The notes: generated from the letters alone by a model not told the origin. A stretch of 64,000 nucleotides of DNA from Candidatus Babeliales bacterium (GCA_050179755.1 JBFXEV010000001.1:233994-297993), one strand, 5' to 3'; shown: positions 39,779-40,229, counted from the stretch's first letter. Numbers and translations are program-made.

Positions 39779-39932
39779 CGCGCCTTCCGGCCAGGTTGAG
39801 ATCTTTTGTTTGCTCAAAAGACCTCAACCAAAAGAGCCTGCAAGGATAGCCATCCTTGCATATCCTGCGTTTTGGCTTTTCCTCTAGCGAACTTTTTTGA
39901 AAGTTCTAAGAGTTAAATCAAAACGGTCAAAG
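39779..39932 (-). ncRNA. Structured non-coding element, copy A
   Basis: Reverse complement aligns to 40067-40229 with compensatory stem changes. Confidence 0.65.
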
Positions 39933-40066
39933 CCTCACAGTATCAAAGAAATTTAGAATTTGCCAATATGTTTATGATGAATGCAAGAAAAATACATGAT
40001 AAACAAGAAAACATACACCTACTCACGCGCTGAAGAATAATGCAATGCACTTTTTGATAATGAATT

Positions 40067-40229
40067 CCTTGGCCGTTTAACCCGGACTCTTAGCACTTTT
40101 TTGAGTTCCGAAAAAGTGCGCCGGAGGAGTATTTAAACGCCGGATATATAAACCTGGAAGGTTTATGGGCCCTTTGGAATTGAAAGGGCTTTGGGCAAGC
40201 AAAGCCCGTCACTTGCCCGGGGAGGGCCG
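40067..40229 (+). ncRNA. Structured non-coding element, copy B
   Basis: Stems cgtttaa/ttaaacg, gcactttt/aaaagtgc, ataaacct/aggtttat, gggctttg/caaagccc, ggccct/agggcc. Confidence 0.65.

Follow-up and report, generated by a model that had tools for sequence, protein, structure and literature searches.

An interval between two genes of a Candidatus Babeliales bacterium carries two copies of a multi-hairpin sequence in inverted orientation, and the question is what kind of entity such a pair represents. A sequence-only reading of the locus had offered three answers: a structured non-coding RNA, a single-stranded DNA signal and a non-autonomous mobile element. The Dependentiae/Babeliales are widespread, mostly uncultured parasites of protists. 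The window, which is the whole stretch of DNA analysed, is 64,000 nucleotides long. The genome was searched as a single contig of 1.525 Mb with 39% G+C and 96% completeness.

Two diverged copies of one multi-hairpin element

The pair consists of arm A (39741-39933, minus strand) and arm B (40066-40266, plus strand), which are diverged copies of one multi-hairpin element with about 70% identity. Alignment within 39500-40500 confirms the inverted, head-to-head arrangement around a spacer. The reverse complement of 39730-39970 aligns with 40040-40290 at a mean column identity of 72% over 263 columns, flanks included. The linkers that had been picked out as conserved (TTGRCCGTTT, ACTCTTAG, CGCNGGAGGA, AAACGCMGGATAT, GCYCTTT, the GCAA loop and CCGG) are all present. 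The spacer is AT-rich, as described, and spans the 132 nt of 39934-40065. The interval is also free of coding sequence, with no ORF of at least 60 amino acids between the genes ending at 39658 and starting at 40350.

Three of the four stem pairs differ between the arms by compensatory changes in the way first described. One stem is GAACTTT/AAAGTTC in one arm and GCACTTT/AAAGTGC in the other, a second is TGCAAGGAT/ATCCTTGCA versus ATAAACCT/AGGTTTAT, and the H3 stems with the GCAA-type loop also covary between the arms. The fourth is more plausibly a short G+C hairpin, with GCC-GGAA-GGC in one arm and GCCC-GGGGA-GGGC in the other.

A long inverted repeat proposed to enclose each copy is not borne out as a feature. 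Closing of arm B is possible only through the 7 bp of GGCCGTT/AACGGCC, and the repeat finder identifies 39745-39759 and 39947-39961 of arm A as a direct repeat, 80% alike. No conserved closing helix was found among the other copies. A helix joining the 5' end to the AACGGCC motif on the 3' side was rejected, as it occurs only in arm B and one copy of the congener.

The features of the doublet are listed below in window coordinates. H1 to H4 designate the hairpins of each arm. R1 is a covariance model that spans the 5' hairpin and the one after it, and R3 is a covariance model of the conserved 3' module, built from a 17-sequence MAFFT alignment.

39741-39933, minus strand: arm A, full copy, 5' end at 39933 and 3' tail end GAATTTCTAGAG; from alignment to arm B and fold (-70.3 kcal/mol, z -6.07, 0 of 200 dinucleotide shuffles as good); matches R1 39825-39933(-), 112.6 bits, and R3 39768-39869(-), 80.5 bits
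39868-39926, minus strand: arm A H1, the long 5' hairpin (P1-P2-P3), in whose internal loops the bases ACUCUUAG and CGCNAGAGGA are conserved; from RNAalifold on five copies and helices 1-4 of the 11-sequence alignment
39834-39865, minus strand: arm A H2, with GGAUAU, hairpin GCAAGGAU/AUCCUUGC and pseudoknot linker GCUC
39794-39829, minus strand: arm A H3, 15-bp hairpin with loop AGCAAA; an inverted repeat, 93% complementary
39812-39815 and 39834-39837, minus strand: arm A pseudoknot, G+AGC pairing with linker GCUC (GCUC/GAGC)
39782-39791, minus strand: arm A H4, short G+C hairpin GCC-GGAA-GGC, from folding
39934-40065: AT-rich central spacer with outward -10-like boxes and a 14-nt palindrome
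39939-39944, minus strand: -10-like GATACT in the spacer, with TTGGCA at 39961-39966
39969-39982 and 39992-40005: 14-nt palindrome in the spacer, from an inverted-repeat search
40056-40061, plus strand: -10-like GATAAT in the spacer
40066-40266, plus strand: arm B, full copy, start UCCUUGGCCG and tail end AACGGCCUUGAA; fold -67.4 kcal/mol, z -3.01, 1 of 200 dinucleotide shuffles as good; matches R1 40066-40181(+), 124 bits, and R3 40142-40239(+), 59.4 bits
40074-40139, plus strand: arm B H1, long 5' hairpin, P1 CGUUUAA/UUAAACG and P3 GCACUUUUUUG/CGAAAAAGUGC
40142-40172, plus strand: arm B H2, with GGAUAU, hairpin UAUAAACCU/AGGUUUAUG and linker GCCC (40169-40172)
40186-40207, plus strand: arm B H3, GGGCUUUG/CAAAGCCC with loop GGCAAG; GGGC (40193-40196) pairs with linker GCCC
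40215-40235, plus strand: arm B H4, GCCC-GGGGA-GGGC, followed by conserved CGAAGCUG

The suggested setting in an effector array remains only an impression, which rests on flanking small, secreted-looking proteins without a Pfam match. Copies elsewhere in the genome adjoin unrelated genes. The genes at 39164-39658, 40350-40733, 40754-41584 and 41602-42813 form a same-strand run, none with a Pfam match, whose proteins have an N-terminal signal-like start and a hydrophobic C-terminal end. The run is followed by an ankyrin-repeat protein at 43208-44440. Two adjacent paralogous genes at 46493-48103 and 48124-49674 encode proteins of 536 and 516 amino acids with signal-like starts, and the 536-residue protein has no Pfam match. 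Large outer-membrane-like proteins similar to this pair flank copy D of this genome and the copies at G001-L020 and G110-L071.

A covarying fold with a pseudoknot

The claim that the structure is under selection is strongly supported by covariation in the 5' half, the 3' half and a pseudoknot. RNAalifold predicts 35 pairs for five copies of this genome, 12 of which are changed on both sides. An alignment of 11 sequences of the 5' half displays both-side changes in 22 of 33 pairs, and 96.7% of the cells are paired, compared with 78.2% after shuffling and at most 53.9% with partners slid; this alignment is model-fitted, which favours structure. The 3' half was aligned by MAFFT for 17 sequences from six genomes and is therefore fitted to no structure. 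Both-side changes occur in 19 of its 25 pairs, and the paired cells amount to 95.7%, compared with 77.4% shuffled and at most 52.5% slid. Among individual helices, H2 has compensatory changes in seven of nine pairs (helix 5 of the 11-sequence alignment, also helix 1 of the MAFFT alignment) and H3 in 10 of 12 (helix 3 of the MAFFT alignment). A hairpin equivalent to H4 is found in most relatives by per-sequence folding, the alignment being too poor for pair counts. Paralogs that are about 70% alike keep every helix by compensatory changes.

In the sense direction, an arm begins with UCC in most genera and continues with the long 5' hairpin, H2, the pseudoknot linker with a U-run, and H3. The H2 hairpin is flanked by GGAUA and UGCCCUUUU, and the GGCAAG-type loop of H3 pairs with the UGCC(C) linker. 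H3 is followed by the short G+C hairpin, the sequence CGAAGYUG or CGMAGCGUAAGC, which recurs in other copies and genomes, and an A-rich tail ending in AACGGCCUYG or AAYUUCUAY. The part conserved across the order is the 3' half, composed of GAGAUAYAUAAGNN-loop-NNCUUAURUGCCCUUKU plus the next hairpin. The element is modular. The long 5' hairpin differs between subfamilies, and this genome alone combines the same 3' module with three or more unrelated 5' regions.

The pseudoknot is formed between the linker UGCCC, located just 3' of the conserved hairpin, and the complementary loop GGGCA of the next hairpin. At least four contiguous Watson-Crick pairs between a copy's own linker and its own H3 loop are present in 49 of 52 copies, whereas four pairs are reached in only 29% of 1,866 cross-pairings of copies whose loops are unlike. 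Seven variants depart from the consensus: GCUC/GAGC, UGUC/GACA, YACCC/GGGUR (comprising CACCC/GGGUG and UACCC/GGGUA), GUCC/GGAC, UGUA/UACA, GCAC/GUGC and CGCCC/GGGCG. Arm A carries the first of these, and a copy of the congener has AGCUC/GAGCU. In the MAFFT alignment, 97% of the cells in the four pseudoknot columns pair, and two of the columns have compensatory changes.

Two other pairings were considered and discarded. An extension of H2 through GG/CC, predicted by RNAalifold, competes with the pseudoknot for the same bases, and the covariation sides with the pseudoknot. A long-range helix between CMGG after H1 and CCKG after H3, derived from copies A, B, C and E, is not kept in the copies of the congener.

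The fold is strand-specific. Among paired cells, G-U outnumbers A-C by 14:1 in the 11-sequence alignment, 7:2 in the MAFFT alignment and 26:2 in a model-fitted alignment, which indicates that the fold belongs to the strand called sense. The two arms consequently fold on opposite strands, as is simply explained by divergent transcription from the spacer. Because G-T wobble is tolerated in single-stranded DNA too, the strand asymmetry does not separate RNA from single-stranded DNA.

A multi-copy family restricted to the Babeliales

BLAST of the genome reveals three further full copies at about 92.1 kb, 1,355 kb and 1,452.7 kb, giving five in all (copies A-E). R1 recovers the five at 112-127 bits and detects five copies in the only congener, G001, at 53-83 bits, and one in G049, a member of another family, at 34 bits. 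Three of 61 genomes match R1, this genome included. A second covariance model, R2, matches 9 of 151 genomes of the order. R3 reaches furthest. It finds 16 matches at 15 places in this genome, and 29 of 151 Babeliales genomes contain between 1 and 26 matches each. In a second, phylum-wide sample, R3 matches 32 of 151 genomes, all within the same order. The element extends well beyond what the sequence-only reading could show.

Outside the order, the element is not seen in the collections searched. An exact pattern of the core occurs in 19 stretches, all in six Babeliales/Dependentiae assemblies, among about 185,000 species genomes, and gives no match in viral contigs. Phage and plasmid collections contain no blastn match, and an exact pattern of the 5'-domain motifs has no match outside this genome.

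The element corresponds to no family in Rfam 15, a comparison that the first reading had also named. At the gathering score, the whole window yields only two distant tRNAs. A search of 39600-40400 at E ≤ 10 returns three chance matches to miRNA models (E > 2), the loci of seven relatives at E ≤ 0.1 return tRNAs and one overlapping chance match, and the region of copy D returns none. A literature search found, as judged by titles and abstract openings, no paper on non-coding RNAs of the Dependentiae/Babeliales. The element is a new, Babeliales-restricted, multi-copy family of pseudoknotted, doublet-forming structured elements. The family is patchy, being found in about 20% of genomes with varying copy number, a distribution equally compatible with a selfish repeat and with a gene.

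Doublets are gained or lost as whole units

The doublet is the characteristic arrangement of the family. Among the 150 of 197 R3 matches listed, adjacent matches within 700 nt of each other are divergent in 29 cases and convergent or tandem in none; doublets occur in 10 of 20 genomes. The arms face each other over a spacer of about 60-130 nt. Weaker partners turn many seeming singles into doublets, as for copy C, with a partner at 91,881-91,988, and for two copies of the congener.

The unit is best seen in G148, a genome with 26 R3 matches. The doublet there measures about 620-660 nt. Its two arms can be told apart, and it has a palindrome at the centre and inverted repeats at the ends. Many such units, about 90% alike, occur in both orientations and also at contig ends. 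One doublet fills the 665 nt between two convergent genes. The same gene pair lies about 20-35 nt apart in two congeners of that genome (G078 and G194), with no element match even with filters off. This filled site, set against near-abutting genes in the congeners, indicates gain or loss of complete doublets. With AT-rich edges and relatives of 55-76% protein identity, the sites are too diverged for a target-site duplication to be read.

A similar picture emerges from this genome and its congener. The five full copies of the congener lie at places without a full copy here, one of which holds a degenerate copy, and two intergenic regions that contain the element in the congener exceed their counterparts here by 500-700 nt. 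Some doublets are old, since this genome and G110, a member of a different family, both have one downstream of yraN-cdsA. No doublet was found at the cdsA locus in four other genomes checked there.

Mobilising enzymes and insertion sequences

No mobilising enzyme for the doublets was identified, and no recognisable transposase. A RAYT/IS200 (Y1) mobiliser was rejected on weak co-occurrence and the lack of a Y1 gene in the genome with most copies. Y1 genes are present in 14 of 29 element-bearing genomes compared with 52 of 151 overall; G148, G104 and G094 have none. The only Y1 (IS200/RAYT-like) gene here, at genome positions 216,971-217,288 in the stretch 216,971-217,527, encodes 159 amino acids and is flanked by other repeats, not by the element. 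Small hairpin repeats of the CCTGAGCTTGTCGAAGG type lie upstream of it, and one copy of this short repeat stands beside a doublet in G148.

Other candidates fared no better. An IS110 mobiliser with its bridge RNA was set aside, as PF01548 is found in two of five high-copy genomes tested and is absent from G148, G170 and G184. An omega/reRNA guide of TnpB was rejected because the two tnpB-like genes (genome 391,924-392,115 and 1,420,952-1,421,152, within 380-aa open frames) have no match to R1, R2 or R3 nearby. The two genes share no nucleotide similarity and are tightly packed against their neighbours; they may be domesticated copies. A retron msr/msd was dismissed, with no match to the reverse transcriptase PF00078 in the genome. 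The cargo between widely spaced arms in G163 and G167 consists of ordinary genes and was likewise discarded.

In G063, a Tn5-like transposase of 462 amino acids with Tnp_DNA_bind, DDE_Tnp_1 and Dimer_Tnp_Tn5 domains is located between arms (L113:911-2390, L114 and L116). The insertion sequence is bounded by 19-bp ends of its own, and its 9-bp duplication, CATATACGC, falls within the 5' hairpin of an arm. The arms are therefore a target and not the ends of the insertion sequence, and no autonomous copy, with a transposase between the same ends, was seen from which the element could derive as a MITE. The insertion occupies the same 9-bp site in several arms, which points to target preference or to spread by recombination between arms. 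No homologue of this transposase is present in the genome studied here. In G033, one arm has an IS110-type gene at a distance of about 300 nt, and another is immediately preceded by a Y1 gene (C1:534,602-535,427 and 79,508-80,183). There seems to be a clustering of insertion sequences around the elements.

Across 25 genomes, only two protein families are found repeatedly next to the copies: cdsA, in this genome and G110, and one outer-membrane protein family, in G001 and G110.

A separate hairpin module of about 55 nt, GCCCGACGUAGCUUGCCGAGCC-loop-GGCCCGGAUAAGCG, occurs six to seven times in the genome, at L011:3163-3222 (genome 1,355,200-1,355,259), 92,331, 993,022, 1,034,268, 780,421 and 1,021,876. 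Copies C and D carry it in their 3' tails. In the congener, two copies have a variant inserted into the H3 loop, and it lies inverted upstream of a third. The module has no Rfam match.

Possible signals for transcription

A promoter-like site with 9 of 12 matches precedes arm A on the minus strand. In 6 of 10 subfamily copies, a -10-like box lies 3-8 nt upstream of the conserved UC(C) start, compared with 31% of AT-rich control 20-mers; this enrichment lends weak support to a promoter. No clear intrinsic terminator was seen at the arm ends. H2 followed by UUUU scores as terminator-like. A tRNA gene is located 180-240 nt downstream of an arm on the same strand at 3 of 40 loci (L060:889-975, L061:2172-2248 and L065:1774-1850), which could reflect chance or co-transcription. 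Judged from the sequence, the combination of a multi-helix fold, a covarying pseudoknot and a conserved loop is what functional RNAs look like.

Interpretation of the doublet

Of the three alternatives first proposed, the structured RNA and the mobile element are best kept together, because the folded arms travel as a doublet that is gained or lost; the single-stranded DNA signal is the less probable reading. We consider it about evenly probable that the doublet is a mobile cassette carrying outward-transcribed small RNAs. Outward transcription from a putative promoter in the spacer would yield an RNA of about 170-200 nt from each arm. The constant 3' pseudoknot module would be the shared scaffold and would either bind a protein or confer stability, and the variable 5' hairpin would give each paralog its identity. 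The doublet would spread as a cassette by a route needing no element-encoded protein. A bolder form of this proposal is that the doublet is a novel type of mobile unit that lacks a protein: its two outward RNAs, with their constant scaffold and variable 5' hairpin, would enlist an enzyme of the host for copying or moving the cassette, or would act as a lineage-specific ribonucleoprotein system in these parasites. We regard this as improbable; if true, the doublet would be an RNA-defined mobile gene cassette without known counterpart.

The arms could instead be recognition structures for a DNA enzyme of the host or one acting in trans, with the doublet as the copied unit of a selfish REPIN/BIME-like single-stranded DNA repeat and transcription as an incidental property. 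Much of the genomic behaviour speaks for this explanation: the family is multi-copy and patchy, inverted doublets are the sole arrangement (29 of 29 among the 150 of 197 matches listed), near-identical units lie at contig ends in G148, a site filled in that genome is empty in its congeners, and the five full copies here and the five in the congener share no position, one degenerate copy excepted. Insertion sequences also land in the arms, as the Tn5-like one does in G063, or near them, as with the IS110-type gene of G033. However, the enzyme it calls for was not found, the Y1 distribution and the setting of the single Y1 gene here argue against a RAYT, and IS110-type genes are missing from three of the five high-copy genomes tested. 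An arm of about 200 nt with four hairpins and a covarying pseudoknot is also far beyond any REP, which measures 20-40 nt. Three more observations count against it: the opposite-strand folding of the arms, the preservation of the fold in paralogs about 70% alike, and a locus common to two families. We therefore regard a REPIN-like repeat as a possible but rather unlikely explanation.

Two further explanations take the arms as regulators, in cis or in trans. The doublet might be a cis-acting module, made up either of outward promoters with structured 5' leaders or of a two-way barrier or terminator between convergent genes. Some arms do precede a same-strand gene (arm B the gene at 40350, copy D an outer-membrane protein gene), and the tRNAs downstream of three loci, the terminator-like score of H2 with UUUU and the several doublets between convergent genes would fit as well. 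Yet about half of the arms (A, C and E) face the 3' end of an opposite-strand gene, which rules them out as leaders, the U-run comes after H2 only when the arm is read outward and not in the direction of incoming transcription, and the pseudoknot, conserved loop and conserved tail exceed what a terminator needs. A cis-acting role is quite unlikely on this balance. The GGA motifs GGAGGA, CGGAUA, CUGGAAG and CCGGAAGG raise the idea of a small RNA that sequesters CsrA/RsmA in the manner of RsmX/Y/Z. Several such motifs are present per arm in copies A-E, some of them in loops, and multi-copy Rsm RNAs are known. However, CsrA (PF02599) has no match in this single-contig, 96%-complete genome, although control genomes give matches; GGA is not conserved family-wide in the loops, those of H2 being UGGA, CGGC, CAGA, ACAC and others; and no Rfam family of Rsm RNAs matches. 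The idea is close to refuted, and we give it hardly any credence.

Comparison with known systems

The element appears closest in behaviour to REPIN doublets and closest in form to sibling small RNAs with a shared scaffold, and by the defining features of both it seems to belong with neither. REPINs/BIMEs are inverted doublets of REP sequences, hairpins of about 20-40 nt, and are mobilised by RAYT transposases. REP sequences are favoured targets of some insertion sequences. The element resembles REPINs/BIMEs in being an extragenic, multi-copy, inverted-doublet unit with hairpins kept by compensatory change, in its long-term vertical persistence, and in the preference of insertion sequences for both as targets. 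It differs in its arms, which are about 170-200 nt long with four hairpins and a pseudoknot in place of one short hairpin and are separated by a spacer with promoter-like boxes, and it has no RAYT association, with Y1 genes in only 14 of 29 carriers, none in G148, and a single one here amid other repeats.

The sibling small RNAs with a shared scaffold include Qrr1-5, RsmX1-5 and LhrC1-5. Like these, the element is present as several diverged paralogs per genome, each with a putative promoter, and combines a conserved module with variable parts. In contrast to them, it is strictly head-to-head among the matches listed (29 of 29, from 150 of 197), reaches up to 26 matches per genome, is gained or lost in whole units, and has no terminator and no defined seed. 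Neither Hfq nor CsrA is encoded in this genome.

Two further systems share single traits. The RNA-OUT of IS10 is an outward antisense RNA near the end of the insertion sequence, and is likewise a structured RNA transcribed outward towards the edge of a mobile unit, as proposed here. Unlike IS10, the doublet has no transposase gene inside, the Tn5-like insertion sequence of G063 being an insertion into an arm. An integron attC site is a single imperfect hairpin beside cassettes and an integrase. Its sequence is free to vary while the single-strand fold is kept, a property shared by the element, which differs in having several hairpins and a pseudoknot and in forming doublets; no integrase context was seen.

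Significance

The covariation of the pseudoknot is on a par with that of curated RNA families, and the arms constitute a large, well-supported structured family. Its genomic behaviour is unusual: the doublets are strictly head-to-head, and they appear or disappear as complete units without a recognisable transposase. Should the arms be RNAs, they would represent a candidate regulatory or ribonucleoprotein system specific to the phylum. If they act as DNA, they would carry the REPIN concept over to folds of far greater complexity and would imply a mobilising enzyme yet to be found. Either way, the covariance model could be offered to Rfam and used to annotate the genomes of the Babeliales.
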